Shown here: in pieces, positions 11,099-53,875 of the stretch
Numbering within the stretch: position 1 is the stretch's first letter
Layout: each line of letters starts with the position of its first letter
Source: SAR202 cluster bacterium
GTDB lineage: Bacteria; Chloroflexota; Dehalococcoidia; Lucifugimonadales; VGZY01
DNA: 64,000 nt
Assembly (NCBI GenBank): GCA_016872355.1
Contig: VGZY01000004.1
Location: 15,688-79,687, forward strand
Reading direction: 5' to 3'
Notes under the pieces: model-generated
Databases searched by the model: none
What the model was told of the DNA's origin: nothing
The model's input: the letters and a program-made list of their open reading frames with translations, nothing else
Made by a program: the position numbers and the translations under genes

Positions 11099-11102
11099 CC
11101 CC

Positions 11103-13803: not shown

Positions 13804-13882
13804 GGCATGCTCCCGCGAGTTTAGCCGGTGGCGGCTCCGGTGTAGCGGAGCCGTCCGTGGGGAGCATAGTAGAGTCACAGGC

Positions 13883-24674: not shown

Positions 24675-25007
24675 GTGTACGGCACAATCTTCAAGATGAA
24701 GGTCAAGAAGGGCCACGAGCAGCAGGTCATGGATATTACGAAGCAATGGGACGAGCAGAGGACCCCGAAGGCGAAGGGCGTCATTGGCGAGTACGTTATG
24801 AAGCCCGATAGCGGCCCGGCCAACGAGTATATTGTCGTAGTCATATTCTCGGACCAGGCAGCCTACCGCGCGCTCGCCGCGGATCCGGAGCAGGACCGCT
24901 GGTACCGCAAGCTCCGCGAGCACCTGGAAACCGACCCGGAGTGGCAGGACGGCGAGTACATCGCCGCCAGCCTGCCGAAGCAGGCCGCGGGAGCGAAGGG
25001 CAAGTAG
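24675..25007 (+). CDS. Small ABM/Dabb-like (ferredoxin-fold monooxygenase-like) protein
   Basis: 110 aa with a GTG start and strong RBS. The pattern ..YIVVVIFSDQAAYRALAADPEQDRWY.. resembles ABM domains; weak call. Confidence 0.45.
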   Translation: MYGTIFKMKVKKGHEQQVMDITKQWDEQRTPKAKGVIGEYVMKPDSGPANEYIVVVIFSDQAAYRALAADPEQDRWYRKLREHLETDPEWQDGEYIAASLPKQAAGAKGK

Positions 25008-25058
25008 CTGCGTTTGGCCGGGCCGGATGCCATGTCATTCATCCGGCCCGGCCGGCAT

Positions 25059-26063
25059 CTACTTCCCTCGCCAGATCCTGTCCCCCTCCTCCGCAATCGC
25101 CGCGCCCTTTGCGCGCTCCTCCGCCGTCAGCGGTGGAACACTCGCCGCGCCCGCGTTCTCCTCAAGCTCGGCCACTCGGAGCGCGCCGGGGATAACCGCC
25201 GTCACGCCCGGCGTATCGATGATGAACCGCAGCGCGGCCTGCGCCACGGTACGCTTGCCGCCGGTAGCCAGGAAGTGCAGCTCGCTGAACTTCCTGAACG
25301 CCGTCTCGGTCCTGGCGCGGTCGCCGTAGAAGGCGCGGTAGCGCGTGTCCAGGGGGTCCAGCTCCGGCAGCTTGTCGAACCAGTGGCCGGAGAGCACGCC
25401 GGAGGCGAGCGGCGACGCTATCATCGTGCCGATGTTGTTATCCCTGGCGAACTGCAGCATCGCCTCCGAGCCCCGGTGCACCATGTTGTAGCCAACCACC
25501 ATGCCGGCCACCTCGCCGAAGTTCATCGCCTTCTTGAGGCCTTCAATGCCGTCGATGGCTGTGGTGGAGACCCCTGACCAGCGTATCTTCCCCTCGCGCT
25601 TGAGCTGGGTGAGGGTCTCCATCGCCGCCTGCAGCGTCTCCGGGTGCGGCCGCGAGTGGAGCATGTAAAGGTCGATGTAGTCGGACTGCAGCCGCCGCAG
25701 TGAGCCTTCGCACGCCTCAATGATGCGCTTGCGGGTGTGGGGGATGTCGGCCTCATCCGTATAGAACCCGCGCACCTTCGTTGAGATCACCCATTTATCG
25801 CGTCGGCCCCGCGTCGCCAGGCCGACTATCGACTCCGCATGGCCGCCGCCGTAGATTTTCGAGCTATGCAGCAGGTTGACTCCCAGCTCCTCGGCGCGGC
25901 GTATCGTCCTGATCGACTCCTCGTCCACCGCCCCCGCCCACCCCTTGGGGATGCGCTTCACACTCTCGCCGATCACCCCGCCGATTAGCTCCCCGATGGG
26001 CCAGCTCCCTAGCCCTATCGCCGAGACCTTGATGCCGGTCTTGCCCAGTATTCGGTACTCCAT
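25059..26063 (-). CDS. Aldo/keto reductase
   Basis: 334 aa from MEYRILGKTGIKVSAIGLGSW, with later YIDLYMLHSRP and GVSTT motifs. Confidence 0.85.
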   Translation of the reverse strand: MEYRILGKTGIKVSAIGLGSWPIGELIGGVIGESVKRIPKGWAGAVDEESIRTIRRAEELGVNLLHSSKIYGGGHAESIVGLATRGRRDKWVISTKVRGFYTDEADIPHTRKRIIEACEGSLRRLQSDYIDLYMLHSRPHPETLQAAMETLTQLKREGKIRWSGVSTTAIDGIEGLKKAMNFGEVAGMVVGYNMVHRGSEAMLQFARDNNIGTMIASPLASGVLSGHWFDKLPELDPLDTRYRAFYGDRARTETAFRKFSELHFLATGGKRTVAQAALRFIIDTPGVTAVIPGALRVAELEENAGAASVPPLTAEERAKGAAIAEEGDRIWRGK

Positions 26064-26146
26064 GCGGCCTCCGTAACGACTTCCGAATCGCATCCCCTCC
26101 CGACCGGCTGCAATCATGGCACAGTCGGCACCGATTGTGAAGTCGC

Positions 26147-26614
26147 ATGTGTGTAGTTCCGGGCATCCTCGACCACTACGTCCAAAATGGTCGCTTTGTG
26201 CAACGTGGCACGTCGGACCGGCACGATACGCTCTACGTAAACATCGCAGCCAGATTAGCGCGGACGGTAGAGGGGGTGGAAGTAATTTCCCCAGGGGCCA
26301 GGGTGACCCCAGGCTCGCTCGGCTTCAACGACAGGTTCGCCGTGCATGACCCGATGATCGTCGGCAACTACCTGTACAGCATCTGGACGAACGGCCTGCA
26401 GGTGTTCGAGATATCCGACCCGTCCAGACCGGTGCTCGCAGGCTCTCACGTCACAGACCTGTCGGTAACTGACTATAAGCTCATGGGCGGCTGGGGCGTC
26501 TACGTCCTGGACGGCCCCGACAAGGCGGTGGTGAGCGACTGGAATAAGGGCCTCTTCGTATTCGACACCACGCCCTCCAGCGCGCGCAGCAGCAAGAGCA
26601 CGGTAGCGCCGTAA
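26147..26614 (+). CDS. LVIVD-repeat-like fragment (possible remnant of a larger beta-propeller gene)
   Basis: 155-aa ORF. GNYLYSIWTNGLQVFEISDPSRPVLAG and WNKGLFVFDTTP resemble LVIVD repeats. Only about 2 blades are present, and there is no room upstream for the rest. Confidence 0.35.
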   Translation: MCVVPGILDHYVQNGRFVQRGTSDRHDTLYVNIAARLARTVEGVEVISPGARVTPGSLGFNDRFAVHDPMIVGNYLYSIWTNGLQVFEISDPSRPVLAGSHVTDLSVTDYKLMGGWGVYVLDGPDKAVVSDWNKGLFVFDTTPSSARSSKSTVAP

Positions 26615-26691
26615 AGTGGTATACGGGCGCATGCGCCGGCTCGTAGTTTGAGAAGGCAGTTGCGGTGGTATTGTCACGCGTGGGCGAGGCC

Positions 26692-26743
26692 CACCCTCAC
26701 CCTTTGCCCAGAGCGGCAAAGGCCTCTCCCTCAATGGAGAGGA
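26692..26743. repeat. Double-hairpin repeat module, reverse orientation
   Basis: CCCTCAC, CCTTTGCCCAGAGCGGCAAAGG, CCTCTCCC-TCAAT-GGAGAGG is the reverse complement of the module at 3489-3613 and 54572-54623. Confidence 0.9.
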
Positions 26744-26917
26744 GGTATGCGGCGCCATCCCGTAACCATTGTGCCCGGTTTGCACCCTCTTGTTTTCTCC
26801 CCCTCGACTCGGGAGATGTCGCAGCTCCGGGCGACAGAGAGGGTGGCCGGGGTGGCGCGGCGCCGGGATCCTCGCCCTGTGCCCTCGTAGTGGCGGGCTC
26901 TGCCCGCCTCCGATGGT

Positions 26918-27781
26918 CTAGAAAAACTCGTCCATCAAAATGTAAAACTCCACTTTCTCCGTCTCCGGCTTGCCGATGCCGTACTCCTCGCAAAACGCCA
27001 GCTCCGTCGCTTCACGATGGCCGAGATTATCCCGCAGGCTCCGTATCGCCAGCGCGATGTCCTGGTAGCGGTCCGCCACGCCGGCGCGGCCCAGGTCTAT
27101 GAAGCCGGACACGGACTCACCTTCCAGAATCACGTTAGGGAGGCAATAGTCGCCATGCGTGAATACAAGGTCCTCGGTCGGCGGGCGCTTCGCCATGAGC
27201 TCATCGAATAGCGCAGATGCGCTCCTCCCAAGATACTCAGCCTCGAAATTGCTCTCATCCACCCTGCCCGCCATCACGTTGGCCCGGGCCGCCTCCATCC
27301 TGACGGCCAGCGTCATATCGAAGGGGCATGCGGCTATCGGCACCGAATGCACCTGCCGCAGCCCGGCCGCGAGCAGCCGCGCCAGTCGCACAGCATCCCC
27401 TTCTGACGACACGTGTACCGACGATGCTGCGACTCCCGGGATGGCCGAAGTGAGGAGATACGCGCCCTCCGGCGTCTCCACGTATGCTTCCACGCGCGGG
27501 GCCGCCAGCCTGCCCTCCAGCCACATTATCCGCTCCTTCTCGGCGCAAAGCTCTTCCGGGTCATCGCCCTTCACAAGCTTCAAAAACAGGCTCGGCCTGT
27601 GCTTGCCCTCGAAACGGAAGACGTCCGCCGTTGACCACCCGCCGGTGAAGTCCGAGCGCCTGTCATATCCGGACAGTCGCGACTTGATAGCCTCAGGCAG
27701 GGATGTTAGGTCAAAGGGCGATGCTCTTCTTCTGGCCAAAGCGGCAACCTTTTCCGGGGAATATGCCATTATGGCGGACAA
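26918..27781 (-). CDS. Aminoglycoside 3'-phosphotransferase-like kinase, APH(3') family
   Basis: 287 aa. GGWSTADVFRF, Brenner motif FTHGDYCLPNV, IDLGRAGVADRYQDIA, and C-terminal FYILMDEFF typical of APH(3'). Confidence 0.85.
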   Translation of the reverse strand: MSAIMAYSPEKVAALARRRASPFDLTSLPEAIKSRLSGYDRRSDFTGGWSTADVFRFEGKHRPSLFLKLVKGDDPEELCAEKERIMWLEGRLAAPRVEAYVETPEGAYLLTSAIPGVAASSVHVSSEGDAVRLARLLAAGLRQVHSVPIAACPFDMTLAVRMEAARANVMAGRVDESNFEAEYLGRSASALFDELMAKRPPTEDLVFTHGDYCLPNVILEGESVSGFIDLGRAGVADRYQDIALAIRSLRDNLGHREATELAFCEEYGIGKPETEKVEFYILMDEFF

Positions 27782-27838
27782 GCCGCTCCCGGGTCAACTG
27801 GGGAGGTTGTTGCACAGTCGAACCTCTCGAACATTCCT

Positions 27839-29164
27839 TTACAGCAGCGCCCCCTGCGCCGCGAGCCGCCGCCGCAGGTCACTGCGGTCGATGTCCGCAG
27901 GCGCGACCGCCCCCGCGGCCGCCATGGCCGCGCCCACGCCAGCGCCCTCGCCGAGCGCCATCGCGGTCATGTTCACGCGGCTGGAGGCGAGCGCCTCCTG
28001 GTCCGCCGAGTGGCACCGTCCGGCCACTAGCAGGTTCTCCACCTTGCGGGGCAGCAGAGTGCCATACGAGATGTCGTACGCAGGCACGATCGTGTGCTTG
28101 TGGAAGCCGGAGGTGTCCGACGGGTGCCTATCCATGTACCACGAGCCCTTGGCCACGGCGTCCTCGTAGCGACGGGTGTGGAACACATCGTCCGCCGTCA
28201 GCGTGCGCTCGCCGACGATGCGCCGCGACTCCCGCGCGCCGATCACCGGGCCGCTCGTGACGAAGTAAGCGTTCGCGAACTCCGGAAGCCGCTCCTTCCA
28301 GATCGAGTACATCGTCCAGGCGTCCTCGCGCCCCTTGATCTCCGCGTCGCTCGTCTGCTGCGCTGAGGTGCTGTCGAACGCGACGCGCACCGCGTTGAAC
28401 ATTACCTCGCCCGGCCCCATCGGCGCGATCCCCGGCCCGGCGTACACACCCATCTCCCCGGCACGGTGCGCCTCTTCGATGACCTCGGCGCATCTCTTCG
28501 TCAGCGCGTACAGTTTGTCGGACGTGTTCGCGTTGTCGACGTTTCCCACCCGGAAGTGCAGGCTCCCCGGCTGGCGGACCGCCGCCATCTCGTACGGTGC
28601 GCCCGCCCAGGCTGCCACGTCTGCGTCGCCGGTGCAGTCTACAACCACCTTCGGGCGCACGGCCGTCAGCCCGTCTTTGTTCCCAAGGACGACGTGGTGA
28701 ATGCGGCCGCCTCGCGAGACCACATCCACGACCTTTGTGTGGTAGAGCACGCGCGCGCCGGACTCCCTGATGAGCCTGTCTGCGACCAGCTTGAACCGGT
28801 CCACGTTCCCGGTGCGTATCGGCAGCTTGCCGGGGTGCTTGTCCAGCTTCTCCTGGTCGGTCAGCGGCTCAAAGATTTTGCGCGACTTCAGCGGCAGTGT
28901 GATTTTCCCCAGGCGCTCCAGTATCTCAAGCACAACGCCGCCAACAACCACCTCGCCCGTCGTCATGTCGCACAGGCCGTCGGTCGCGTTGGAGGTGATC
29001 GCCGTCATGAACCCGCCGGCGAATCCGCATTGCTCGACCGCCAGCACGCTCGCGCCCAGGCGCGCCGCACCCACCGCCGCACCGGTCCCTGCGCACCCCA
29101 CCCCGCAGACAAGCACGTCCACATCGGCAATGACGTTGAGTGAGCGGGAGTAGGAGATTTGCAT
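27839..29164 (-). CDS. FAD-dependent oxidoreductase (FAD_oxidored/pfam12831-like)
   Basis: 441 aa. N-terminal dinucleotide-binding DVLVCGVGCAGTGAAVGAARLGASVLAVE. Confidence 0.65.
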   Translation of the reverse strand: MQISYSRSLNVIADVDVLVCGVGCAGTGAAVGAARLGASVLAVEQCGFAGGFMTAITSNATDGLCDMTTGEVVVGGVVLEILERLGKITLPLKSRKIFEPLTDQEKLDKHPGKLPIRTGNVDRFKLVADRLIRESGARVLYHTKVVDVVSRGGRIHHVVLGNKDGLTAVRPKVVVDCTGDADVAAWAGAPYEMAAVRQPGSLHFRVGNVDNANTSDKLYALTKRCAEVIEEAHRAGEMGVYAGPGIAPMGPGEVMFNAVRVAFDSTSAQQTSDAEIKGREDAWTMYSIWKERLPEFANAYFVTSGPVIGARESRRIVGERTLTADDVFHTRRYEDAVAKGSWYMDRHPSDTSGFHKHTIVPAYDISYGTLLPRKVENLLVAGRCHSADQEALASSRVNMTAMALGEGAGVGAAMAAAGAVAPADIDRSDLRRRLAAQGALL

Positions 29165-29320
29165 GGGTATGGCACCAGCATGAGTTTGTGGCGAATGATA
29201 TCAGGCGCGCGGCGAGGCGACGAGCATCGGGGTCCCCAGGAGGCGACTTCTCGCGCTCTATGCGTCTCATGCCCGCCTTCTGCTACGATGGCGCCCAGAC
29301 CTGCCCCAGGAGTGGCCACC

Positions 29321-32300
29321 ATGGTCTCCGTGAACATCGGCCGCATAGAAGAGCGCACGCAGGAGATCGGGCGGCGGCTGTACGGGCTCCTCCGGGAGCA
29401 AAGGTCCGCGCCGAGCGACCGCGTGCAGGACTGGCTCATGGTGCGTCTTATGGAGCAGCCCGAGCTGCGAACGCGTATGCTCCGTTTCGTGGACGTGATG
29501 GCCGGCCTGCCGGAGGGGGCACGGCGCGCCAGGTGGCCGCCCTGCTGCGGGAGTACTTCGCGGACGAGGCGGACCGGCTACCGGAGCTCTTGAAGCTCCC
29601 CATCGCCGCGGTAAGGTCGGACTTCCTGCCCGAAGAGGTCCGCGCGACCCTTGTGCGCCGCTCGATGCTGATGATCGCATACCGCTTCATCGTTGACCCG
29701 AGCGAGCGCAGCATCGATAACGTCCTCCGCAGACTGGAGCACTTCAACCGCTACCCCAGCTTCGACCTCCTTGGCGAGGCGGTCCTGAGCGCGCCGGAGG
29801 CGGACGCTTACCGCAAGGGATCCCTGGAGCTGCTGGACCGGCTTGGCCGCCACCGCATGGCGCGGCAGCGCACGCCCGGCGGCAGGCCCGCGCTCGAGGT
29901 ATCCATCAAGCTCACCGCGCTGACCGCACAGTTCAACCCGGAGGCGCCGGAAGCCACAATAGACCGCGTTCGCGGCCCGTTCGCCCAGATCTGTGACGCT
30001 GCCCGCTCGCGGGGCATCGGCGTAACCGTGGACGCCGAGCAATTCATGTACCGTGAGCTCATCTGGGAGATCATCCGGGACGCGGCCGGTCCCGGCGGGC
30101 CCTTCGCTGAATGGCCGGACCTGGGGATGGTTGTGCAGGCGTACCTCCGCCACTCCGAGGCCCACGCGCAGGACATCATCGAGTTCGGCCGCCGGCGCGG
30201 GACGCCGCTGCGAGTGCGGCTCGTGAAGGGCGCGTACTGGGACTACGAGTACATAGTCGCCGAGCAGCACTCATGGCCCGTGCCGGTCTACCTGGACAAA
30301 GCGGAGACGGACAGGAGCTTCGAGCGGATTGTCCGTCGCGTTCTCGAGGCCCACACCGCCGTTTCGCTCGCCGCGGGCAGCCACAACGTCCGCAGTCACG
30401 CGTACGCGGAGGCCGTCCGTGAAGCCCTCGGCCTGCCGGAACACACCGTGGAGCACCAGACGCTCTACCGCACGCTCGAGCACCTGAGCCGCGCCCTGCC
30501 CCTGATGGGCTGGAGCGCGCGCGACTACATCCCTTCCGGCGAGCGTATCCCCGGTATGGCGTACCTGGTGCGCCGCATCCTGGAGAACACGTCGCAGGCC
30601 GGCTTCCTGACTCAGCAGCGGCGCAGCGAAGACCCGGCGAAGCTCCTCAGCCCGCCGGCGCCTGCCGGGGAAGACGAGACCTACCGCCGCCCGCAGTACG
30701 CGACCGGTTTCCTTAACGACCCCGAGCCCCGCCTCTTCGACCACGACGAGCGGGCGCAGATGGACGAGGCGCTGGAGAGTACACGTGAACGGTGGGGGGC
30801 CGAGTATCCCCTGGTCTTCGGCGGCGAGTCCGTATCCGGGCATGAGTCGGTTGCCTCGCATAGCCCGTCGCACCCGGCGGAAGTGGTTGGACGGGTCCAC
30901 TTCGCCGGCGCGCAGCAGGCCGACGCGGCGATAGCGATGGCAAACAAGGGCGCGCGTAAGTGGGCGGAGACCGCCCCATCCGAGCGCGCGAGCATCGGCC
31001 TGCGCGCCGCCGCCATCCTGCGTGAGCGCAGGCACGAGATCGCCGCCTGGGTCGTGCACGAGGGCGGCAGGACGCGATCGGAGGCGCTGGCGGATGTGGG
31101 CGAGGCGATCGACCATATCGAATGGAATGCGCGGGAGCTGTTACGCCAGGAAAAGACCGTTCGTGACGACTACCGCCCGCGCGGGGTCGTGGGCGTAATA
31201 TCGCCCTGGAACTTCCCGATCGCCCTCCCGGCCAGGATGGTAAGCGCGGCGCTGATGGCCGGCAACGCCGTCATCCTCAAGCCATCCGAGCAGACGCCCA
31301 TTGTCACGCAGAAGCTCGTGGAGGCGCTCCACCAGGCGGGGGCGCCCCGTGACGCCCTCATCCACCTGCCGGGCCGAGGGGAGACGGTGGGCAGGCGACT
31401 CGTGGACAGCCCGGACGTGGACATGATCGCTTTCACCGGCTCGAAAGCGGTGGGGGTGTCCATCTACAAGTCCGAGTCGGAGGTAAGCCTCGCCAGGGGC
31501 GGCATCAAGCGCACGATCACTGAGATGGGCGGCAAGAACCCGATCATCGTTTTCCCGGATGCGGACATGGACGAGGCGGTGGCGAGCATTTTGACATCCG
31601 CCTTCGGCCACGCCGGCCAGAAGTGCTCAGCCTGCTCGCGCGTAATCGTCCACCACACCGCCTACGGCAGGCTGGTCCTGCGCCTCATCCAGGCCGCGCG
31701 CAGCCTCGTGGTCGGCCCGGCGGACGACCCGGACACGTTCATTAACCCAATGATAGACGAGGAGGCGAAGGCCCGCGTCCTGCGCTACGGCGATATCGCG
31801 CGGCAGGAAGGCAATGTCCTTCTGGACATGCAGGCTGCGGGCCCCTCGGGGTCGCTGTGCGTCGGCCCGATGATCGTCCACATCGCCCCGGAGAAGGCGA
31901 GCACGTCGCGCATCATGCAGGAGGAGATCTTCGGGCCGGTGCTGGCCGTAACGCAGTTCAGCACAGAGCGCGACGCCACAGACCTTGCCAACAGCGTCCC
32001 GTATTCCCTCACGGCAGGCATCTTCTCCCGCAGCCCGGCCACGGTGAGACGGGTGACGCAGGAGCTTAACGCGGGCAACATCTACGTCAACCGGAAGATA
32101 ACCGGCGCCAGGGTTGGCATAGAGCCATTCGGCGGCTTCAACTTCTCCGGCACCGGCCCCAAAGCCGGCGGCGAGGACTACCTGCTCGCCTTCATGACGC
32201 GCTCCGAATCCCTCAGGACCGGAGCTTCAACGTCTATCGACAGCTCCCACTCAGGCCAGGTGGGAAGCTCCGAAAACCGCCGGAACGGCGATTCCGCCTC

Positions 32301-32343
32301 TCTCTCCCCCCTTCCCTCTCAGGGAAGGGGGCCAGGGGGTTAG
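29321..32343 (+). pseudogene. putA: Bifunctional proline dehydrogenase / P5C dehydrogenase (PutA), frame broken at a G5 run
   Basis: The N-terminus MVSVNIGRIEERTQEIGRRLYGLL...RMLRFVDVMAGLPEG is read from ATG 29321 in one frame. The remainder, from (G)TARQVAALLREYFADE... through the PRODH and ALDH domains (..EMGGKNP.., FGHAGQKCSA, EEIFGPV, PFGGFNFSGTGPKAGGEDYL), is in the -1 frame. The switch is at GAGGGGGC (29513-29520), and one extra G would restore a single frame. The 3' end runs into a repeat (32296-32345). Confidence 0.85.
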
Positions 32344-32345
32344 GT
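32296..32345. repeat. Short-form hairpin repeat (CCCCCTTCCC-TCTCA-GGGAAGGGGG..GGTTAGG) at the putA ALDH/CTD junction
   Basis: Same subfamily as 6571-6616. It supplies the last 13 codons ([13 protein letters not shown]) and the TAG of the putA main frame. Confidence 0.8.
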
Positions 32346-32501
32346 CTCTCCGCACCCTGGTCTCCCATAGGGCCGCAGGAGCGGGTCCGCGTCCTTCGAG
32401 AGGCCCTGGAACTGCTCAAGCGCCGTGAAGAAGACCTCAATGGCGCCATAAGTGCATGGCATCCCGGGAGACTGATCGACAGGCGCCGGACCAGGGAGGC
32501 C

Positions 32502-33056
32502 ATGGAAGCCCTCGCCGCTAGCGTTACCGGCCAGTGGAAAGAGGTCGGCGAGGCCCGGCCCACCGTTAACGTACCCGGCCAGGACAACTTCATTGTCTGG
32601 ACGCCGCGCGGGGGCGGGATAGTGATGGTCGACGAGGGGGCTTCCCCCGAGGCCCTTGCCGGTATGCTGTTCGGCACAATCGTCGCCGGCAATGGGGCCG
32701 TCGTTTGCGTCCCATCGCATCTACGCGCGCTCGCCGGGCTCCTGGTTGACGCCCTCCATGAGGCAGGCGTGTCGCAGTACGCCCTTTTCCTTGCGGAGGC
32801 CGACGCCACGCCGGATTCCCTCGCCGCCCTGCCCGTGCACTTCGCGGTCGCCGACCTGGGCGCGGAGGGCACGGCATCCCTTCACCGCGCCCTGAGCGTT
32901 ACATCTGAAGACGGCGGCCAGCGCTGGCTCAAGGCGCTGGTCTCGATGTCCGACGGCACCCGCCCCGGCGAGCCCTGCTTCCTGTGGCGGCTGTGCCATG
33001 CGAAGACCGTCGCCGTCAGCACCCTCCGCCACGGCGCTGACCTGGATTTACTGTAG
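32502..33056 (+). CDS. PutA C-terminal (ALDH-superfamily-like) domain, encoded in a different frame from the upstream putA body
   Basis: 184-aa ORF. VNVPGQDNFIVWTPRGGGIVMV...GTIVAGNGAVVCVP resembles the CTD of long PutAs. The frame is open from 32070 but has no ATG/GTG/TTG before 32502. Confidence 0.5.
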   Translation: MEALAASVTGQWKEVGEARPTVNVPGQDNFIVWTPRGGGIVMVDEGASPEALAGMLFGTIVAGNGAVVCVPSHLRALAGLLVDALHEAGVSQYALFLAEADATPDSLAALPVHFAVADLGAEGTASLHRALSVTSEDGGQRWLKALVSMSDGTRPGEPCFLWRLCHAKTVAVSTLRHGADLDLL

Positions 33057-33088
33057 TCGGCTACCGGCTTTTTTGGAACGCCTTCCCG

Positions 33089-33174
33089 GTAGCCCGCCCC
33101 GATGCATCGGGGCCTGTCTTGCTCGCCGGTGATGCCTGCATGCAACGCGGGCCCCGATGCATCGGGGCGGCTAC
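33089..33174. repeat. 86-bp nested-palindrome element (two GTAGCC-GCCCCGATGCATCGGGGC arms around a 36-nt core)
   Basis: Left arm: GTAGCCCGCCCCGATGCATCGGGGC (33089-33113). Right arm: GCCCCGATGCATCGGGGCGGCTAC (33151-33174). Same architecture and length as 16978-17062. Confidence 0.8.
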
Positions 33175-33225
33175 GTGAAGTCAAATCGCCCCGATACAAC
33201 CGGGCCGCTGTCTTGCCGACGGCTC

Positions 33226-33270
33226 TCTGCTCACTGCCGACTGCCATCTGCTGACTGCCATCTGCCATCC
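33226..33270. repeat. Heptamer array (..CTG-ending units: CTCACTG CCGACTG CCATCTG CTGACTG CCATCTG CCATCCT)
   Basis: Reverse complement is GGATGGCAGATGGCAGTCAGCAGATGGCAGTCGGCAGTGAG, the same GGCAGTC family as in ileS and 11050-11098. Confidence 0.8.
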
Positions 33271-33302
33271 TGCTATAATCGTCCGATAGAACTTCAAGCC
33301 GC

Positions 33303-33716
33303 GTGGAAGCCATGGCCGTCGACTACGCTGCCCTCAAAGTGGGCGACAGGATATCCGACCGCACGTACAGAATGGATGCCGCGTCCGTGGCGAAGTACGT
33401 GGATGCGGTCATGGACCGCTCGGGCATATTCGACCCGGGCGCGCAGGGCGCCGTTGTGCCTGCCATGGCTATCGCGGCGCTCAGCATGCGGGGCGTCGTG
33501 AACGACCTGGGCATCCCGGGCGGCACCGTGCACGTGGCGCAGGAGCTGGAGTTCCACATAGTCGCGCGCGTCGGCGAGACACTGGAGTGCAAGGCCAAGA
33601 TCTTCCAGAACTCCACGCGCGTCGGCTGGCGCTTCCTCGTCGTTCGCCTCAGCGTGGAGGACGGCAGTGGCGAGCCGGTGATGACCGGCAAGAGCACGAT
33701 AATGCTGCCGGTGTGA
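33303..33716 (+). CDS. Hotdog-fold protein, MaoC-like, non-catalytic type (HadA-like)
   Basis: 137 aa. Hotdog-like length and pattern, but no hydratase-2 D-x4-H motif. Paired with the catalytic MaoC gene downstream. Confidence 0.6.
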   Translation: MEAMAVDYAALKVGDRISDRTYRMDAASVAKYVDAVMDRSGIFDPGAQGAVVPAMAIAALSMRGVVNDLGIPGGTVHVAQELEFHIVARVGETLECKAKIFQNSTRVGWRFLVVRLSVEDGSGEPVMTGKSTIMLPV

Positions 33717-33810
33717 CGGTCAACGGCCGCAGTGAGCAGCGGGTCCCGATTCACTAAGTTCATGCGGGGTCTTCGACAGTGAGCAGTCGGCCAGGCAAAC
33801 AATCGAGTCC

Positions 33811-34224
33811 ATGAACGAAGGCGATTCCCTCCCTACAATCGAAAAGCTGATTACCCAGGCGCAAATTCAGAAGTACGCCGAGGCTTCCGGCGACTTCAAT
33901 CCCGTGCACATTGACATGGAGTTCGCGAAGACGACGCAGTTCGGCGGGACTATCGCGCACGGGATGATGATCGCTGCCGGCGTCTCCGAGATGATGTCTG
34001 TCGCCTTTGCGAAGAGCTGGCTGGAGAATGGCAGGCTCAAGCTCCGCTTCAAGGCCCCCGTGAGGCCCGGCGATAGCATCGCTACCTTCGGGACGGTAAA
34101 GGGCGTTAAGGTTAAGGTTACGGAGGGCGCGCGGGAGCTCACCTGTGCGGTCGGGATTCGCAAGCAGGACGGCGAGGAAGTAATAACCGGCGACGCGGTT
34201 GTGACGCTGCCGCAGGGCCGGTAA
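33811..34224 (+). CDS. MaoC-family (R)-specific dehydratase (HadB-like)
   Basis: 137 aa. Hydratase-2 motif YAEASGDFNPVHIDMEFA. Confidence 0.8.
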   Translation: MNEGDSLPTIEKLITQAQIQKYAEASGDFNPVHIDMEFAKTTQFGGTIAHGMMIAAGVSEMMSVAFAKSWLENGRLKLRFKAPVRPGDSIATFGTVKGVKVKVTEGARELTCAVGIRKQDGEEVITGDAVVTLPQGR

Positions 34225-34236
34225 CAGGAGTATTTC

Positions 34237-35250
34237 ATGACGACGCCTCCAGGCATGGTGCGCATAGCTGTAGACGCGATGGGCGGCGACCACGGCCCCG
34301 CGGAGATCATCAAAGGTGCCGCACTGGCCGCCAAACAGGGCGGCGTGGCGGTCCTGCTAGTCGGCGACCCCGATAAGGTGCAGCCCGAGCTGCCCAAGTA
34401 CGGCAAGCTGCCTATTATGCCGGTGCCTTCGGAGGGGATGATCGTCGAGGGCGAGCACCCTGCCCTTGCGCTGCGGCAGAAGCCGAAGGCGTCCATCCTT
34501 GTCGCCACCGGCGCCGTCAAGAAGGGCATGGCCGACGCCTGCGTCACGATGGGCTCCACGGGAGGCGCCATGGCCGCCGCGGCGGTCGTGCTCGGCATGT
34601 TCGAAGGCATAGAGCGGCCCGCCCTCGGCGGCCCGGTCATCGGCTTCGCGAACAAACAGGTGATCATAGACCTCGGCACCAACGTTGACTGCAAGCCCCA
34701 GCAGCTCCTCAGCTTCGCAGTCATCGGCAATGTCTTCGCCCGCACCTTCTGGGGCGTGGAGAAGCCTCGCATCGCCCTCCTTACGGTCGGCTCGGAGTCC
34801 GGCAAGGGCAACAAGCAGGTCAAGGAGACGGCAGAGCTCTTCCAGAAGAGCGGCCTGAACTTCACCGGCAACGTGGAGGGCAACGACCTCCCGTTCGGCA
34901 GGGCCGACGTTGTGGTCTGCGACGGCTTCGTCGGCAACATCGTCATGAAGTTGACCGAGGGCCTCGGCGAGGCTACCTCACACCTGCTCAAGGAGCGGCT
35001 GAAGGGCAAGATGGCGGAGGCGGACGCTGAGGCGATTGCCAAGGAGGTCTTCGACCTCCACAACGTTGTCGAGGTCAATGGCGGCGGCCCCCTGCTGGGC
35101 GTCAACGGCGTCAGCGTCGTCGGCCACGGCCGGGGCCGCGCAGACGCGGTCGCACGCGCCATCGGCATGGCGAAGAAGGCTGTGGATGTCGGCTTCGTCG
35201 CCAAGCTCAACACGGAGCTCGCCCAGGTGCGGGCGAACGTAGGGGTGTAA
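34237..35250 (+). CDS. plsX: Phosphate acyltransferase PlsX
   Basis: 337 aa. RIAVDAMGGDHGP N-terminus and DGFVGNIVMKLTEG. Confidence 0.95.
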   Translation: MTTPPGMVRIAVDAMGGDHGPAEIIKGAALAAKQGGVAVLLVGDPDKVQPELPKYGKLPIMPVPSEGMIVEGEHPALALRQKPKASILVATGAVKKGMADACVTMGSTGGAMAAAAVVLGMFEGIERPALGGPVIGFANKQVIIDLGTNVDCKPQQLLSFAVIGNVFARTFWGVEKPRIALLTVGSESGKGNKQVKETAELFQKSGLNFTGNVEGNDLPFGRADVVVCDGFVGNIVMKLTEGLGEATSHLLKERLKGKMAEADAEAIAKEVFDLHNVVEVNGGGPLLGVNGVSVVGHGRGRADAVARAIGMAKKAVDVGFVAKLNTELAQVRANVGV

Positions 35251-35252
35251 TC

Positions 35253-36005
35253 TTGGTCAAGTCTGCTATCGAAGGAAAGGTAGCCCTTGTCACCGGGGCG
35301 TCCAAGGGCATCGGCCGCGGCTGCGCCATCCGGCTGGCGGAGATGGGCGTGAAGGTCGCCGTGAACTACAACTCCTCGCCGAAAGCGGCCGAAGAGGCAG
35401 TGGAGACGATCAAGGGCATCGGCGGCGAGGCATTCGCCGTCCAGGCCGACGTTTCGAAGGTCGAGCAGGTCAACGCAATGGTGGACCGCGTGCAGAAGGA
35501 CTGGGGCGCTGTCGATATCCTCGTAAACAACGCGGGCATCATCGACGACGGCCTCCTCATCCGCATGACGGACGAGCAGTGGCGGCGCGTCATTGGCACC
35601 AACCTGGACGGCACCTTCTACTGCTCCCGCGCAGTCATCCGCAAGATGCTCAGCAAGCGCTGGGGCCGCATAATCAACATCGCCTCTGTGGTGGGCCTCC
35701 GCGGCAACCCGGGCCAGACTAACTACACCGCCTCCAAGGCAGGTATCATCGGCTTCACGAAGGCGCTCGCCAAAGAGGTCGCCACCCGCAACATCACGGT
35801 CAACTGCGTTACCCCCGGTTACCTTGAGACCGAGACCACCTCTGTGCTTACGGAGGCCCAGCGAAGCCACTGGCTTAGCGTCATCCCTCAGTGCCACTTC
35901 GGCGAGATCGACGATATAGCCTACCTGGTGTGCTACCTGGCCGATGAGAAGGCCAAGTATATGACCGGGCAGATCATCAGCGTCGACGGCGGCATGGCGG
36001 TATAG
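35253..36005 (+). CDS. fabG: 3-oxoacyl-ACP reductase
   Basis: 250 aa. TGASKGIG, NNAG and YTASKAG catalytic motifs. Confidence 0.9.
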   Translation: MVKSAIEGKVALVTGASKGIGRGCAIRLAEMGVKVAVNYNSSPKAAEEAVETIKGIGGEAFAVQADVSKVEQVNAMVDRVQKDWGAVDILVNNAGIIDDGLLIRMTDEQWRRVIGTNLDGTFYCSRAVIRKMLSKRWGRIINIASVVGLRGNPGQTNYTASKAGIIGFTKALAKEVATRNITVNCVTPGYLETETTSVLTEAQRSHWLSVIPQCHFGEIDDIAYLVCYLADEKAKYMTGQIISVDGGMAV

Positions 36006-36010
36006 CTGTC

Positions 36011-36745
36011 GTGACGACCGACAAGAGCCTCCAGATTATCGATTCCTTCTGGGCCGAGACCTTTGGCTGCTCGATTGAGGTCCTGCGCCGCAGCGGCGTG
36101 GATGTTGTGCCCCGCACGAAAATCAGGGACCGTCGCGACGTCTTTGTCCTGGGGGCGGGCCAGGCGTACGTGGTAACTGCGCGCGAGGATGTGTTTGATG
36201 ACGTGCGCAGCGCGGTGACTGCCCCTGGCCTTGCGCAGGCAACCCTGCTGGAGGTCTCCTTCTGGGAAGGGGTGCTTGGTAGCAGGATCGACCAGGCGGT
36301 AGGTCCCACGTGGCTTGCCTATGCGGACACCAGCGACTTTTACCCGGCAGACACGTCGTCAGTGGCGCAGCTCCGCCCGTCGGACGGCTACGCGCTTGGG
36401 GCCCTCAAAAACGCGTGCTCGAAAGTGGACTGGGAGAGCGGCAACATCGATCTTGTGAAGCAGCCGACGTTCGGCTACTACCTGGGCGACAGCCTCGTCG
36501 CCGTGGCGGGCTACGAGGTGTGGGCCGGCAAGATTGGCCACATCGGCGTAGTCACCCATCCGCAGCTCCGTGGGAAGGGCTTTGGGAAGACGACCGTCAG
36601 CGCGGCCGCGGAGCACGGCCTCAAGGCCGGCCTTGTGATGCAGTACCAGACGATGGGCTCCAACCAGCCGTCGAAGGGCATCGCCCGGTCCCTCGGGTTC
36701 CGCAGGTACGGCCGGACCGTCTCGGTGAGGCTCAAGGGGCGGTAA
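36011..36745 (+). CDS. GNAT-family acetyltransferase
   Basis: 244 aa. C-terminal IGVVTHPQLRGKGFGKTTV acetyl-CoA pocket. Confidence 0.7.
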   Translation: MTTDKSLQIIDSFWAETFGCSIEVLRRSGVDVVPRTKIRDRRDVFVLGAGQAYVVTAREDVFDDVRSAVTAPGLAQATLLEVSFWEGVLGSRIDQAVGPTWLAYADTSDFYPADTSSVAQLRPSDGYALGALKNACSKVDWESGNIDLVKQPTFGYYLGDSLVAVAGYEVWAGKIGHIGVVTHPQLRGKGFGKTTVSAAAEHGLKAGLVMQYQTMGSNQPSKGIARSLGFRRYGRTVSVRLKGR

Positions 36746-37576
36746 GGTTACCCCTATCAACAGGCGGCAACTCTCTGTGTTCGAGCGTCTTTTCTTAGCC
36801 GCTATCTTCTTGACAGACTCTTCGGCGGGTAGGTTCTCCGGCATGGTTCCGCCGAGCTTGCCAATAGTTTTCCGGACCTCTTCTCCAACTCTGCGATGGG
36901 TTTCGCGGGCCTCAATCTCACCCTGCACATTCTTCCTTGCGATCTGTGCTTCGGCCTGGGTTATCCGGAACTCGTTTGCTGCTAACTCCGCTCGTCCCGC
37001 GCGGTCTAGCAAGTCCTCCTTGGGCGCAATTCCCTTCTTAGCCTTAATGTCGCCGAGCCCCATTCCGTACAACCCGCGATATCCGGCGTCATGGAACATG
37101 GCATAATTCTGCACTCCGGCTTTCTTCGCTGCGCTGTTTAGATACTTGTTCGCGTCTTTGACACGGTCTCTCAAAGCCATGCGGCGGTCCTCGTCGGACT
37201 GCTGGTCAGCAATTTCCTGTCTCCGGGTTTGCACAGCAAAATAGGTCTGGGCTATGGAAATCTGAGGCTTACTGGGGTCTCCATTCATTGCAATCAAGTA
37301 ACATGCATAGCGCGAAAGGAAGACGTCACGAAGAGGCCTTTTCGCTCCGCTGCCTATCTCGACCATTTTGGTAGTGTCAACAAAATGGTGTTTGGCATCC
37401 ACGCCCGAGCTTTCGCACGCCATGCGCGCCTTCGCGAGAACGTCTTCAAAGTTACGCCACTCGCCATAGCCGAGCAGAAGCTGAAGATCGCGAGCTCTCC
37501 AGAACTCCGCACCGCCCTCAGAAACTTGCCTGGTCTCTTCGATCCTCGCTATTGTGTGTGGCGCATCCATTAGCAT
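36359..37576 (-). CDS. dinD: DNA-damage-inducible protein D (DinD-like); 3' end uncertain
   Basis: The first ~268 aa (..FWRARDLQLLLGYGEWRNFEDVLAKA..ACYLIAMNGDPSKPQI..AQTYFAVQTRRQE..) match DinD. The ORF then continues ~130 codons antisense through the GNAT gene with no stop. Lower GC than the flanks. Confidence 0.7.
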   Translation of the reverse strand: MLMDAPHTIARIEETRQVSEGGAEFWRARDLQLLLGYGEWRNFEDVLAKARMACESSGVDAKHHFVDTTKMVEIGSGAKRPLRDVFLSRYACYLIAMNGDPSKPQISIAQTYFAVQTRRQEIADQQSDEDRRMALRDRVKDANKYLNSAAKKAGVQNYAMFHDAGYRGLYGMGLGDIKAKKGIAPKEDLLDRAGRAELAANEFRITQAEAQIARKNVQGEIEARETHRRVGEEVRKTIGKLGGTMPENLPAEESVKKIAAKKRRSNTESCRLLIGVTLPPLEPHRDGPAVPAEPEGPGDALRRLVGAHRLVLHHKAGLEAVLRGRADGRLPKALPTELRMGDYADVANLAGPHLVARHGDEAVAQVVAERRLLHKIDVAALPVHFRARVFEGPKRVAVRRAELRH

Positions 37577-37603
37577 GCTCCTCGTGCGGCAGAGGCTTAT
37601 CTC

Positions 37604-38773
37604 CTACGTCTCGTCGATGAAGCCCGGAGGCGCGTCTACCTGGTGGGTCATCGTCGGCTTGGGCTGGTACTTGGGGCCCTCGTACACCTTGCCGGCGTAG
37701 ATGATCACCTGCGGCAGGATGCGCTCCTTGCCTACCCTCTTCTCGTGCAGCACGTCCAGGTACGTGAACTTGCCCTTTGCCACTTCGCTGATAGTCACGT
37801 CCGCTATGGTGCCGGGATTGAGGGTGCCGAAGACGCCCTCCTTGCGGATTGCCCTCGCGGGTGTGGAGGTGGACATCTCGATCACCTCTTCCAGCGAGAG
37901 GCCGAGGGCCAGGAACTTGGACATGGTGGTCGGCATGTCGAAGGTGGGGCCGTCCAGGTTGCGGGCGTGGATGTCCGTGCTGATCGTGGAGGGCTTGAGG
38001 CCGGCCTCAAGGCACTTCTCCATAGCCCTGAATGCGAAGCCGCGCGCGCCGTGGCCGACGTCCAGGTACACTCCCCGCTCAACTGCGTCCCAGACGGCGG
38101 GCCATATCTCGCCCTTGTGGTTCCACAGCGGATACCGGAACGACGCGTGGAAGGTGTGGGTCAGGATGTCGCCGGGATTCATGTAGTCCAGCAGGTGCGG
38201 GATCGGCGCGCCGTACGCCTCCGCCATCAGGATGCCGCCGCCGAAGTCCGCCGACTCGCGGGCGAGGGGAAGGGTCAAAAGGTGCTGCGAGTGGTGGTAC
38301 TTCATGCCGATGAGCACGTCGCTGTACCTCTTGATCATCGCGGAGGCCTCGGCTACCGTGGACGGGTTCGGGCCGTGCGGGTCCGGCATACGCGTCAGGG
38401 CGAAAATGCGCGTCTTGGCGGACGCCATATCCGTCTCCCAGTACTGCGGGAACTCCTTCGGCGTGGCGGTGCCGGCGTCCAGCACCGTCGTGCAGCCGTA
38501 GGCCATGCTGGTGGCGTCGGCGGGCACGCTCAGCTTGATTGCCTGGTTCTCGGTGTCCTTCGGACCGGTGGTGTAGTTGTGGGTGTGAAGGTCGATAAAG
38601 CCGGCCGTAACGATCTTCGTCGCGGCGCCTATGACGGTCTTTGCCTCAAGTACAGGCAGGTTGGGCCCGACCGCCGCGATCTTATCGCCCACGATCGCCA
38701 CGTCCGTGATGCCGTTGATATTCTGGGTGGAGTCTATGACTCTACCGCCCTTGATGAGCAGGTCCCACTTCAT
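37604..38773 (-). CDS. Metal-dependent amidohydrolase/deacetylase-family protein
   Basis: 389 aa from MKWDLLIKGGRVIDS...GFIDLHTHNY (HxH metal site), with later DVGHG and STDIH motifs. Confidence 0.75.
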   Translation of the reverse strand: MKWDLLIKGGRVIDSTQNINGITDVAIVGDKIAAVGPNLPVLEAKTVIGAATKIVTAGFIDLHTHNYTTGPKDTENQAIKLSVPADATSMAYGCTTVLDAGTATPKEFPQYWETDMASAKTRIFALTRMPDPHGPNPSTVAEASAMIKRYSDVLIGMKYHHSQHLLTLPLARESADFGGGILMAEAYGAPIPHLLDYMNPGDILTHTFHASFRYPLWNHKGEIWPAVWDAVERGVYLDVGHGARGFAFRAMEKCLEAGLKPSTISTDIHARNLDGPTFDMPTTMSKFLALGLSLEEVIEMSTSTPARAIRKEGVFGTLNPGTIADVTISEVAKGKFTYLDVLHEKRVGKERILPQVIIYAGKVYEGPKYQPKPTMTHQVDAPPGFIDET

Positions 38774-38835
38774 GTAAAGCTCTCCAAATGGTAGTTCTAG
38801 TAGGCAGCATTTTAGCATAAATCATGCGACTATTA

Positions 38836-39246
38836 TTATGTCACCTTCTTGCGGTAAAACGGCAGAAGTGACATTGAATTTACGCCCCTCGCGTAGGTAA
38901 GCCACAATTCGCAAGCGTCCACCGATACTATACGCAGCCCGGAGTTGTGCCTATCGGGATATCCGTTGGGGTGTTCATAGACTTGCCGTAGAGTTGCTAT
39001 CGGTATTAGAAAGTAGTCTTCGGGGTCGCCGCAAATCCACAACTCGAAGTCCGCGGATAGGCTGTTACTGTTGATATTGGATTTAAGCCGACAACTATTT
39101 TTGTATGGTGAACAAAATCGAACATGCACTCTGTAAGTCCCAACTTGATAGTTGGATCTTCCTGCGGGACTGAAGTCTCTGCCATCCGCAATCCACTCGA
39201 TGACACTTTCTTTTGCGCCTATGTTGTTAAGCTGAAAGGCAGACAT
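38836..39246 (-). CDS. Orphan low-GC hypothetical protein (possible small PD-(D/E)XK/AHJR-like nuclease fold)
   Basis: 136-aa ORF in a clearly AT-richer ~430-bp islet. The pattern YRVHVRF...ADFELWICGDPEDYFLIPIATL recalls AHJR-like endonuclease folds; the functional call is weak. Confidence 0.5.
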   Translation of the reverse strand: MSAFQLNNIGAKESVIEWIADGRDFSPAGRSNYQVGTYRVHVRFCSPYKNSCRLKSNINSNSLSADFELWICGDPEDYFLIPIATLRQVYEHPNGYPDRHNSGLRIVSVDACELWLTYARGVNSMSLLPFYRKKVT

Positions 39247-39267
39247 GACAATCTCCCTCCTTAGTAT

Positions 39268-39969
39268 TCAATCCAGCGCATCCGCCAATGTGATGAAGTC
39301 CGTGGTCTCTATGTCCGGCTGGTACGGCGACTCCTCGTACGGCAGTCTGTACCGGTTGACGTACGCCCATCGATAGCCGCAAGCCCGCGCGCCTATGATA
39401 TCGAAAGCGTGCGCGGCGACCATCATGATCTCATGCGGCTCCTTGCCAATCACCATCGCGCCGGTGCGGTAGACGGCCGGGTGCGGCTTGAACACTCCCG
39501 CTTTCTGCACAGAGATGAGCGCGTCCAGCTCACACGGAATCCTGTTCGCCGCGAGGTGCTCCAGGTACGCTTGCTCCCCATTGGACAGCGCGACGAGCTT
39601 GTAGCGCTTCTTGAGCCGCCGCATCCCCTCGGAAACGTCCTTATAAGGCGATAGCCGCTGCCATGCCTGCATAAGCTCTCGTACCTCGTCGTCCGTGAAA
39701 GCGATGCCGTTCAGCCGCAGGGTATAAACCAGCGCTTTCCGGCACGTCTCTAAATAGCCGCTGTGGCCGAGCTGCATCATAGAGTCCTGGTACTGCTCAA
39801 TGCGTTGCCGCCCGCGCCACTGGTCGAAGAAGGTCTCCGCGCTCACGGCGGCCTTCTTCGCCTATAGGAACTGCCGCGTAGGCGGCGTCATGCTGCCGGT
39901 AAGGTCCAGCACTGTGCCGAAAATGTCAAAGGCGAGCGTGTTAACGCGGGACAGATCGGATGTTGTCAT
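39268..39969 (-). pseudogene. HAD-family haloacid-dehalogenase-type II hydrolase, interrupted by one in-frame TAG
   Basis: ATG 39967-39969: MTTSDLSRVNTLAFDIFGTVLDL (DxxGT motif) ...RQFL, then TAG at 39862-39864. It continues in the same frame: AKKAAVSAETFFDQWRGRQRIEQ...LVALSNG...VFKPHPAVY...AAHAFDIIGA. Confidence 0.75.
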
Positions 39970-40013
39970 GCGGTTACCTGAGAGGATCGTGAATTGTTAT
40001 GTCCATTTTACGG

Positions 40014-40883
40014 TCACAATCCCCGCACCCACTCGATCTGCCTTTCCAATCCCTCCACCGGCCCGAACGTCTCCAGCAATATCGTTGCGTCCATGCCACG
40101 GATTGAGCGGTGGAATGGGCGGGGCAATGTGCCGGTGCCGAGGTCTCCGTGGGTGTCTGCACGGCCGCGGGGGTCGTACAGGAAGTTGTCGCTCCAGTGG
40201 ACGTGGCGGACTTTGGGGGCGAGGTCTAGGAATTTCATCAGCTCCCGTTCGCGGTGCTCTGTCGGGAAGCGCTGAACGTATGTGCAGGCGTGGCTGGCGT
40301 CCAGCGTGAGGCCAACGTTGGATTTCCCGATGTCGTCGTACGCCTGCGAGAGATCGTCAGGTGTGACGCCGAAGAACTGGTACGCCTGCTTTGACCAGTC
40401 TACCTGGTCGCCGGTGGTCTCCGGCGCGATGCCGGTCCACTCCAGCCCCTGATTTTCGATCACTATCTCCACGGCGTACTTCGCCGCGTAGTCTGCGATC
40501 TGCCGGTAGCCGTCTATCATGCGGGCGTAGTCGCCGTAGGTGACGCGCGGCGGGTCCGCGTCGCGCCACACCATCGCGTTGAAGTGGATGCTTACCTGTT
40601 TCAGCTTCGGGAAGTCGCGCACCATGTCTATGTAGTCCATGACCGCCCGGATGCATAGCTTCCGGTAGGCGTCGTCCGTTGCGCCGACGTTGAGGCCCAG
40701 GCCATCGATGGACGTAGGGCCGTGGGCGCTGATCATGATGTCGCGATACGGGAGCATCCGGTCGCGGGTGCTGTGTATCTCGCCCTCGACAGCTAGGCCG
40801 AGGCGCTGGAGTGCTTCGAGGGGGTAGTGCATCATGCCGGAGAGCGGCGGACGGCGGAGATTCTGAAAGGTTGCCTGGCGCAT
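40014..40883 (-). CDS. Xylose-isomerase-like TIM-barrel protein (sugar phosphate isomerase/epimerase family), paralogue 1
   Basis: 289 aa. VRHVHWSDNFLYDPRGRADTHGDLGTGTLP and LTLDASHA motifs are shared by all four tandem paralogues. Confidence 0.75.
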   Translation of the reverse strand: MRQATFQNLRRPPLSGMMHYPLEALQRLGLAVEGEIHSTRDRMLPYRDIMISAHGPTSIDGLGLNVGATDDAYRKLCIRAVMDYIDMVRDFPKLKQVSIHFNAMVWRDADPPRVTYGDYARMIDGYRQIADYAAKYAVEIVIENQGLEWTGIAPETTGDQVDWSKQAYQFFGVTPDDLSQAYDDIGKSNVGLTLDASHACTYVQRFPTEHRERELMKFLDLAPKVRHVHWSDNFLYDPRGRADTHGDLGTGTLPRPFHRSIRGMDATILLETFGPVEGLERQIEWVRGL

Positions 40884-40928
40884 CTCACCCTCTCTGTCGC
40901 GACATCTCTCCCATCAAGGGAGAGACAA
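40884..40928. repeat. Degenerate hairpin repeat (CTCACCCTC ... TCTCTCCC-ATCA-AGGGAGAGA)
   Basis: Intergenic between TIM-barrel paralogues 2 and 1, followed by CGACAGC-type heptamer-like units. Confidence 0.6.
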
Positions 40929-40995
40929 AGCAATGAACAGCCGACAGCCGCCCTCACCGGTCCGCAAGCCCGGAGCCGGGAGAGGAACACAGCCG

Positions 40996-41889: not shown

Positions 41890-41900
41890 TGGAGATTCCT

Positions 41901-42758: not shown

Positions 42759-42768
42759 AGAGGCGCCT

Positions 42769-43629: not shown

Positions 43630-43649
43630 GGCTGGTGCTCCTGAAAACG

Positions 43650-44546: not shown

Positions 44547-44682
44547 GTCATGCCTCACATTCCGGCGCGGGTCTCCCGCGCCGCCGACATTGTACCACCG
44601 GGAATTGCCGTTCGCCCTGTCTAAAAACATGTAGCCGCACAGCATTCTGTGCGGCTACATAGTCACGACCTGGCGGTCCAGT

Positions 44683-45627: not shown

Positions 45628-45701
45628 CGAGATATCTCCTGAATGTTGAACTATTTGTGTTCGATGGCCATTGTATCACGGAGGGGTAAGGGGCTCGCCC
45701 A

Positions 45702-47269: not shown

Positions 47270-47341
47270 CGTTCCCCGGCCGCCCTTAATTCAAGCTATA
47301 GCCCAATTACAGAGCCTTCACGGAAGCGCTCAAATTAATGG

Positions 47342-49060: not shown

Positions 49061-49097
49061 TTGTCGAACTCCTTCGGAATTTTATCCGCTTGACTAT

Positions 49098-49505: not shown

Positions 49506-49591
49506 AACCGAGATTACGAGGTGTTGTTACCGAATTCGTCAATGCCTGTAGGTGCGCCATGCGCGATCTAGTGAGGGCCGGAGCGCCGTAG

Positions 49592-49783: not shown

Positions 49784-49804
49784 GAAGTGTAGATCCGACC
49801 CGCC

Positions 49805-53860: not shown

Positions 53861-53875
53861 TTGAGGTGGTCTCAT

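Follow-up and report, generated by a model that had tools for sequence, protein, structure and literature searches.

Type B PutA proteins, as exemplified by SmPutA (5KF6) and RcPutA, combine a proline dehydrogenase (PRODH) module, a glutamate semialdehyde dehydrogenase (GSALDH) module and then a second Rossmann-like domain of the aldehyde dehydrogenase (ALDH) superfamily, about 200 aa in length. This C-terminal domain (CTD) has been described for the type B and type C enzymes as a second ALDH-like domain without complete catalysis (PMC12041015, PMC5293562); in type B PutA it aids ALDH activity and channelling (PMC5293562), and its role, including the absence of NAD binding, has been discussed in both papers (PMC5293562, PMC12041015). 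The gene considered here is a putA homolog on the forward strand of a 64,000-nucleotide stretch of DNA from a SAR202 cluster bacterium (hereafter the window; G+C 63%). It encodes the same three modules, which in its orthologs make up one polypeptide of about 1200 aa, but the window has the CTD in another frame, beyond a GC-rich hairpin repeat element that lies in the linker ahead of it. Short dispersed palindromes of this sort, both intergenic and intragenic, recall the Rickettsia palindromic elements (RPEs), the miniature inverted-repeat transposable elements and elements of the repetitive extragenic palindromic kind. Intragenic repeats of the RPE type as a rule keep the reading frame of their host gene and add extra loops to its protein. 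The locus also resembles the pseudogenes produced by small insertions and homopolymer indels, in being disrupted relative to intact orthologs by more than one lesion, one of them polymorphic; it differs from them in that the downstream domain is still intact, pointing either to a young event or to a domain that is still used. It is most likely a disrupted putA and not a new enzyme architecture, and the disruption is a known kind of event, the breaking of a gene by a small palindromic repeat.

The PRODH and ALDH modules lie in the main frame of putA, the open reading frame (ORF) at 29140-32343 (mod3=1), where they are carried by one polypeptide; all putA features given here are on the + strand. 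The Pro_dh domain (Pfam PF01619, E 1.5e-67) occupies aa 197-492 of this ORF, positions 29728-30615, and the Aldedh domain, of the Δ1-pyrroline-5-carboxylate dehydrogenase (P5CDH) type (Pfam PF00171, E 1.2e-129), occupies aa 569-1020. The latter, the GSAL/P5C dehydrogenase module at 30844-32199, is also matched by NCBIfam PutA/P5CDH models and ends in ...GTGPKAGGEDYLLAFMTR; the NCBIfam PutA model PRK11904 is matched by putA with an E value of 5e-158. The best PDB matches of this core are BbPutA (5ur2) and GsPutA (4nm9), with E about 1e-179; it is thus closest to the branch-2 type A enzymes, a point of difference from type B. The alignment to 5kf6 ends at query residue 961, and 5ux5 aligns in the ALDH part only. 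The main frame closes with the TAG at 32341-32343, read from the sequence and donated by the TTAGG tail of the hairpin element, so that the original prediction was right in having this frame end inside the repeat, and equally so in describing the CTD-like sequence as open in the -1 frame (mod3=0) from 32070 to 33056 with no ATG, GTG or TTG before 32502. An in-frame fusion of the CTD after the ALDH module is thus absent from the window. Homology in the main frame extends to at least 32225, and that in the CTD frame starts at about 32352. The variable interdomain linker, delimited at 32200-32351 by alignment with orthologous linkers, must contain the frame switch, since it separates the last ALDH homology from the conserved W-x-x-P-I/L motif at which the CTD opens. 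A terminator-like hairpin with a T-run at 33055-33079, directly 3' of the CTD stop codon, probably marks where the putA transcription unit ends.

The CTD falls into two parts. Its first ~50 codons, APWSPIGPQERVRVLREALELL... (32352-32501), are conserved and predicted to be helical and contain no in-frame start codon; the rest is a 184-aa ORF at 32502-33056, ending in TLRHGADL, which is identical to the NCBI protein FJ319_01850 of the SAR202 cluster bacterium metagenome-assembled genome (MAG), annotated as a hypothetical protein. The CTD is a real domain: a confident AlphaFold model of its 236 codons, 32346-33056, has a predicted local distance difference test score (pLDDT) of 87.9 and a predicted template modelling score (pTM) of 0.85, with predicted helices at residues 10-26, 28-38 and 46-62 (pLDDT 89-97). 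In Foldseek searches the model is closest to the ALDH NAD-binding Rossmann domains of PutA and P5CDH (6bsn, 3haz and 3rjl; TMq about 0.7, E about 1e-9), and as modelled it would share with the type B CTD a Rossmann fold like that of the ALDH NAD-binding domain, with no catalytic domain. The P5CDH model TIGR01237 (NCBIfam) matches it over positions 85-224 of 511 only (E 9e-10), from which it is taken to be a second, catalytically incomplete ALDH-like domain. Sequence similarity to the characterised PutA CTDs, those of SmPutA and CfPutA, was not detectable, so that the domain differs from its SmPutA counterpart in matching the NAD-binding domain of P5CDH instead. The expected homology of 32502-33056 to PutA CTDs was nevertheless found, in the sense that in its relatives this PutA-associated ALDH-like domain follows the ALDH module, and in the alignment all family-invariant CTD residues are kept in the window.

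The element itself, at 32300-32344, has as its core a perfect hairpin, CCCCCTTCCCT-CTC-AGGGAAGGGGG, at 32307-32331 with a stem of 11 bp; outside this is a CUCUCU/AGGGGG stem, and the tail reads GGTTAGG. The RNA from 32285 to 32375 folds with a minimum free energy of -44.5 kcal/mol (z -2.3), the outer stem enclosing the 11-bp stem. Three homopolymer runs lie within it: C6 (32306-11) and two G5 runs (32327-31 and 32335-39). The 64-kb window holds four perfect hairpins whose stem is 11 bp or longer, as against 0.1 expected. The 7-nt sequence TCTCTCC, read from the sequence at 32301-32307 and again at 32345-32351, forms a direct repeat resembling a target-site duplication, though it is suggestive only, being low-complexity CT sequence. 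Two kinds of change would repair the junction. Addition of one base to the C6 run or to either G5 run gives a single 1245-aa ORF; alternatively, deletion of 32308-32351 (44 nt, made up of the 37-nt hairpin core plus one TCTCTCC copy) puts everything in one frame. A peptide spanning the junction would read, for example, ...SLSAPWSPIG or ...GRGARGLGLSAPW. A role of the hairpin as an intrinsic terminator was ruled out, there being no T-run after it. No exact or near-exact second copy of the hairpin or its tail is present in the window, and no Rfam family was detected in the whole window or in a permissive search of 32150-32550. The linker segments 32201-32270 and 32267-32346 resemble a degenerate tandem duplication, with an older unit in frame and a newer one bearing the hairpin, but the similarity is only marginal (4/500 shuffles reach the observed score).

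A second -1 frame break is found near the other end of the gene. Three-frame translation places the true 5' end of putA at ATG 29321 (MVSVNIGRIEERTQ...LPEG, 29321-29519; mod3=2), off the frame of the main ORF, and the 90-aa product of this frame matches PF18083, PutA_N. The break is at a G5 run, 29515-29519, which shifts the putA frame after codon ~65; a G6 allele at positions 14-20 of the contig L003 restores the frame (EGGTARQVAALL) and with it an intact N-terminus. Several contigs from the same population bear on both breaks: L080/L083 (Logan, SRR7990526) cover 33098-51959 and L082 (Logan) 26703-30244, while L081 and L003, both of JGI 3300020193, cover 24856-29640 and 29496-39123. The first three and L081 are 100% identical to the window; L003 shows two differences from it, G for T at 35892 and the G6 for G5. 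The shorter run is shared by the window, L081 and L082, and since both alleles were assembled in one JGI sample as overlapping contigs, the site is regarded as polymorphic. The junction break, on the other hand, is identical in the window and in L003, that is, in two haplotypes represented by separate contigs from different assemblies. Adding one G at 29519 to the 44-nt deletion described above yields an intact 1230-aa PutA from ATG 29321.

The two breaks stand out in the window as a whole. A scan for frame switches at its 91 G/C runs of at least 5, and at all same-strand ORF junctions, flagged only the two putA sites, 29515-29519 being the sole G/C run among the 91; this, with the identical contigs, argues that the assembly is not generally indel-prone and that the lesions cluster in putA. 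Nonsense lesions are seen elsewhere. A DHDPS-family paralog (43650-44654, minus strand) has an in-frame TAG at 44016-18 (...DYGAMVD*AKMGLST...), identical in Logan contig L080, and in the second of three tandem BNR paralogs, also on the minus strand, a TAA at 11325-27 replaces a conserved Tyr (KRYHR to KR*HR), with the conserved C-terminal ~70 residues following in the same frame (11103-11324).

The orthologous loci leave little doubt as to the original arrangement. Contig scans gave 47 genome loci and 28 metagenome loci from Dehalococcoidia and Chloroflexota, and PRODH-ALDH and CTD share one frame at every locus that has both, with no stop between them in ~38/42 of the genome loci and 22/22 of the metagenome loci, some 60 fused genes; the exceptions among the 42 have their breaks at other places, in assemblies that are fragmented. 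The linker preceding the CTD varies in length and sequence among them, but the motif W-[DE]-x-P-[LI]-x-x-R always opens the CTD itself, and in the window this reads PWSPIGPQERVRVL at about 32355. The possibility, raised beforehand, that orthologs might encode the CTD as a separate gene with its own start is not realised at any of the ~60 loci, all of them fused in one frame, and no genuine stand-alone CTD gene was found. Four stand-alone CTD proteins (P0003, P0005, P0006 and P0008) were rejected as contig-edge fragments or products of frameshifted, long-read-style contigs. With such proteins explained as fragments or frameshift products, the fused loci identify PRODH-ALDH-CTD in one chain as the ancestral state. 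Against these intact orthologs the window's gene shows the pseudogene feature of two -1 breaks, with the junction reproduced in two haplotypes. The closest relative, the contig L004, has 50% CTD identity. Its PutA linker contains an in-frame hairpin of its own, CTCCCCCT-TGGAAC-AGGGGGAG (L004 439-460), and a near-identical second hairpin, TCCCCCT-TGGAAC-AGGGGGA, stands just after its stop codon (1137-1156); a frame break at a G8 run occurs inside its ALDH module (~265-275). A metagenome scan with the CTD protein for the same population gave no match, and an alignment-based metagenome scan found only distant relatives, at most 45% identical, so that close relatives are not available for dating the insertion.

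Taken together, these observations make a real disruption the best explanation, with a probability of roughly 0.6: putA would be a decaying gene, a young pseudogene brought about by insertion of the repeat in the linker. A real break is favoured by the shared junction, by the 44-nt excision that restores the frame, by the second, polymorphic frameshift and by the other nonsense lesions, a pattern more in keeping with true decay of the gene than with errors of sequencing. The sequence of events may have been as follows. A GC-rich hairpin repeat of ~37-45 nt would have inserted in the permissive ALDH-CTD linker, lengthening it by 44 nt (37 nt of insert and 7 nt of duplicated target). As the extra DNA amounts to 3n+2 nt and its tail supplies a TAG, the PRODH-ALDH chain stops at 32343 and the CTD is left stranded in frame -1, which offers it no usable start. 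The CTD would then no longer be made, and its loss would be expected to cripple the enzyme; by analogy with type B PutAs, whose CTDs contribute to ALDH activity and channelling, this PutA is probably impaired. Relaxed selection could then have let the G6-to-G5 frameshift spread. Since both haplotypes have the junction break whereas the N-terminal one is polymorphic, the latter is most simply placed second, in a single lineage.

A number of points count against decay of the gene by insertion. The CTD frame is fully intact, with 329 open codons, a state as much to be expected of an intact gene as of a very recent break. Three homopolymer runs of a very stable hairpin are no more than 34 nt away from the break, and a single added base in any of them also makes the repair; the junction is covered by only the two contigs. 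TCTCTCC, as low-complexity CT, could recur by chance, and the direct repeat is not seen at the other copies of the element. An in-frame hairpin in this linker is evidently tolerated, as L004 keeps a similar one there, and a truncated PutA might still work, the core being most like the type A enzymes that lack a CTD.

Two other explanations, both of them improbable, deserve to be considered alongside decay. According to one, the break would be an artefact of assembly or sequencing: one base would be missing from the C6 run or from a G5 run, and putA would in truth be the 1245-aa ORF with the element in frame. This corresponds to the second half of the original prediction, that an indel hides an in-frame insertion, and part of it stands, since one added base in any of the three runs does restore the ORF. 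It would also accord with the in-frame copies of the element in ileS and the BNR genes and with the similar hairpin in the same linker of L004, as well as with the wholly intact CTD, and homopolymer trouble is hinted at by the G5/G6 discrepancy between contigs in putA itself and by the L004 frame break at a G8 run. What it does not explain is that the same junction was recovered in two haplotype contigs from different assemblies. The ~28 kb of Logan sequence agrees with the window at 100% identity, no other G/C run in the 64 kb shows a frame switch, and the assembly of both G5 and G6 in one sample suggests polymorphism, not noise. Illumina consensus sequences rarely drop a base in runs of 5-6. 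An error at the junction is accordingly an unlikely source of the break.

It is about equally doubtful that the gene has become a functional split, in which a CTD-less, type-A-like PutA ending at 32343 works together with a separate 184-aa CTD fragment, perhaps assembling with it in trans. In its favour, the CTD ORF is unbroken and ATG 32502 has AGGGAGG ahead of it; the terminator-like site 3' of the CTD suggests that both parts would be co-transcribed, and the core is nearest to the type A enzymes GsPutA and BbPutA, which function without a CTD. However, ATG 32502 falls at residue 53 of the CTD, and a start there loses ~52 conserved residues, about 2.5 of the confidently modelled helices (pLDDT 89-97), while the GGAGG upstream is spaced only 2 nt from the ATG, too close for such a role. 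In none of the ~60 loci is there a separate CTD gene, and in the dominant haplotype the N-terminal frameshift truncates PutA after 90 aa. The earlier proposal that the insertion produced a shorter enzyme and an orphan CTD is therefore upheld as regards the real break but not as a working split, given that the only start, at 32502, costs so much of the domain.

Far less credible is recoding, in which slippage on the G runs, whether -1 slippage of the ribosome or slippage of the polymerase, would still give some full-length PutA and the element would set how much CTD-less enzyme is made relative to the CTD-bearing form. Both putA breaks do call for the same -1 shift and both occur at A-GGGGG-C, a run on which a tRNA-Gly paired with GGG in the P site can move back by one base and again pair perfectly, and the strong hairpin might assist at the junction; on the other side, the hairpin overlaps the runs, when it should be 5-9 nt downstream of them, each ortholog keeps to one frame with no conserved frameshift, and the N-terminal site has an in-frame G6 allele. 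The G5 and C6 runs are also too short for known transcriptional slippage. Canonical -1 programmed ribosomal frameshifting was ruled out, there being no X XXY YYZ slippery heptamer in 32290-32343. The extended form of the idea, with both breaks decoded by slippage and the repeat acting as a switch between CTD-less and CTD-bearing forms (or, in a variant, with the CTD as a trans subunit), is likewise very improbable. Reassignment or readthrough of TAG was excluded, as this is the commonest terminator in the window (23/45 genes), the second nonsense codon is a TAA, and readthrough would miss the CTD frame.

The putA hairpin belongs to a family of repeats with related copies in the window at 3493-3540, 3561-3613, 6568-6615, 10087-10161, 11544-11627, 26690-26745, 32300-32344, 40905-40925 and 54568-54620. 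The composite form of the element consists of a hairpin, CCTCTCCC..GGGAGAGG, then a second hairpin and then GGTGAGGG; it is found between genes at 3493-3540, 3561-3613, 26690-26745 and 40905-40925, in frame within a class I aminoacyl-tRNA synthetase (ileS-like) at about 54524-54634, and, on the minus strand, in frame in two of the three tandem BNR paralogs (10087-10161 and 11544-11627; PHLSAEPDVLSRGAGRGEHG...), the third (12529-13878) being without it. Within this heterogeneous family the putA copy is divergent, of a 'TTAGG-tail' subtype, and its membership rests on its looser match to 6568-6608 together with a shared architecture. That copy is its nearest relative, having the same loop and 9/11 identical stem positions; the two positions that differ from 6582-6606 are changed on both arms and so are compensatory. 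The full sister copy, 6568-6615, is intergenic and on the opposite strand, and ends in a GGTTAGG tail like that of the putA copy. Where ileS reads GGT GAG GGT, the putA/6568 subtype reads GGT TAG G, so that its insertion in the ileS register brings its own stop. Of the intragenic copies in the window, only that in putA is out of frame. The copies in ileS and the two BNR paralogs, being in frame, are in this respect like RPEs, from which the putA copy differs in breaking its frame; other differences are that the window elements are ~40-55 nt in length instead of ~150 nt, are GC-rich and heterogeneous, belong to a free-living Chloroflexota host, and are homologous neither to RPEs nor to any Rfam family.

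Several further observations were made on the repeats and their surroundings. In-frame repeat-derived peptides, NGSQQSAVGSQPEGSVPLPQGEAFGRFGPKGEGVPLP and VVGSQQSAVGK, are found in the ileS-like ORF 53807-57142 (at 54524-54634 and 56312-56344), in segments built of heptamer repeats and the composite hairpin element. Tandem heptamers CAGTCGG/CAGTCAG (complement ACTGCCG) occur at 11037-11111, 33201-33268, 54523-54557 and 56310-56344, both between genes and within ileS, and often beside hairpin elements. The sister copy at 6568-6615 is directly upstream of a minus-strand phosphoribosyltransferase gene with its ATG at 6565-6567; to judge from the sequence, it may serve as a ribosome-binding-site donor, since it sets GGGAGAGAGG 4 nt before that ATG. 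Perfect hairpins of at least 11 bp at 44629-44660 and 53826-53854 are unrelated in sequence to the polypyrimidine/polypurine family. Just 3' of the CTD stop codon and the terminator-like site is a 36-nt imperfect inverted repeat, CCGCCCCGATGCATCGGGGC... (33094-33170), at which the Logan contigs L083 and L084 begin. A protein look-up of 15694-16944 gave no match.

In practical terms, FJ319_01850 is to be regarded as the stranded C-terminal domain of putA and not as an independent hypothetical protein, and putA deserves to be marked as a disrupted gene in the MAG; proline catabolism may therefore be wrongly attributed to this SAR202 population in metabolic reconstructions. The Dehalococcoidia PutAs pair a branch-2-like core with a divergent CTD. 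For the repeats, putA offers one data point on GC-rich hairpin elements inside Chloroflexota coding sequences, which are usually in frame and parallel the RPEs, and its copy shows the cost side of the spread of such elements into genes. A more interesting lead than the putA break itself is provided by the in-frame intragenic hairpin repeats of this SAR202 genome.

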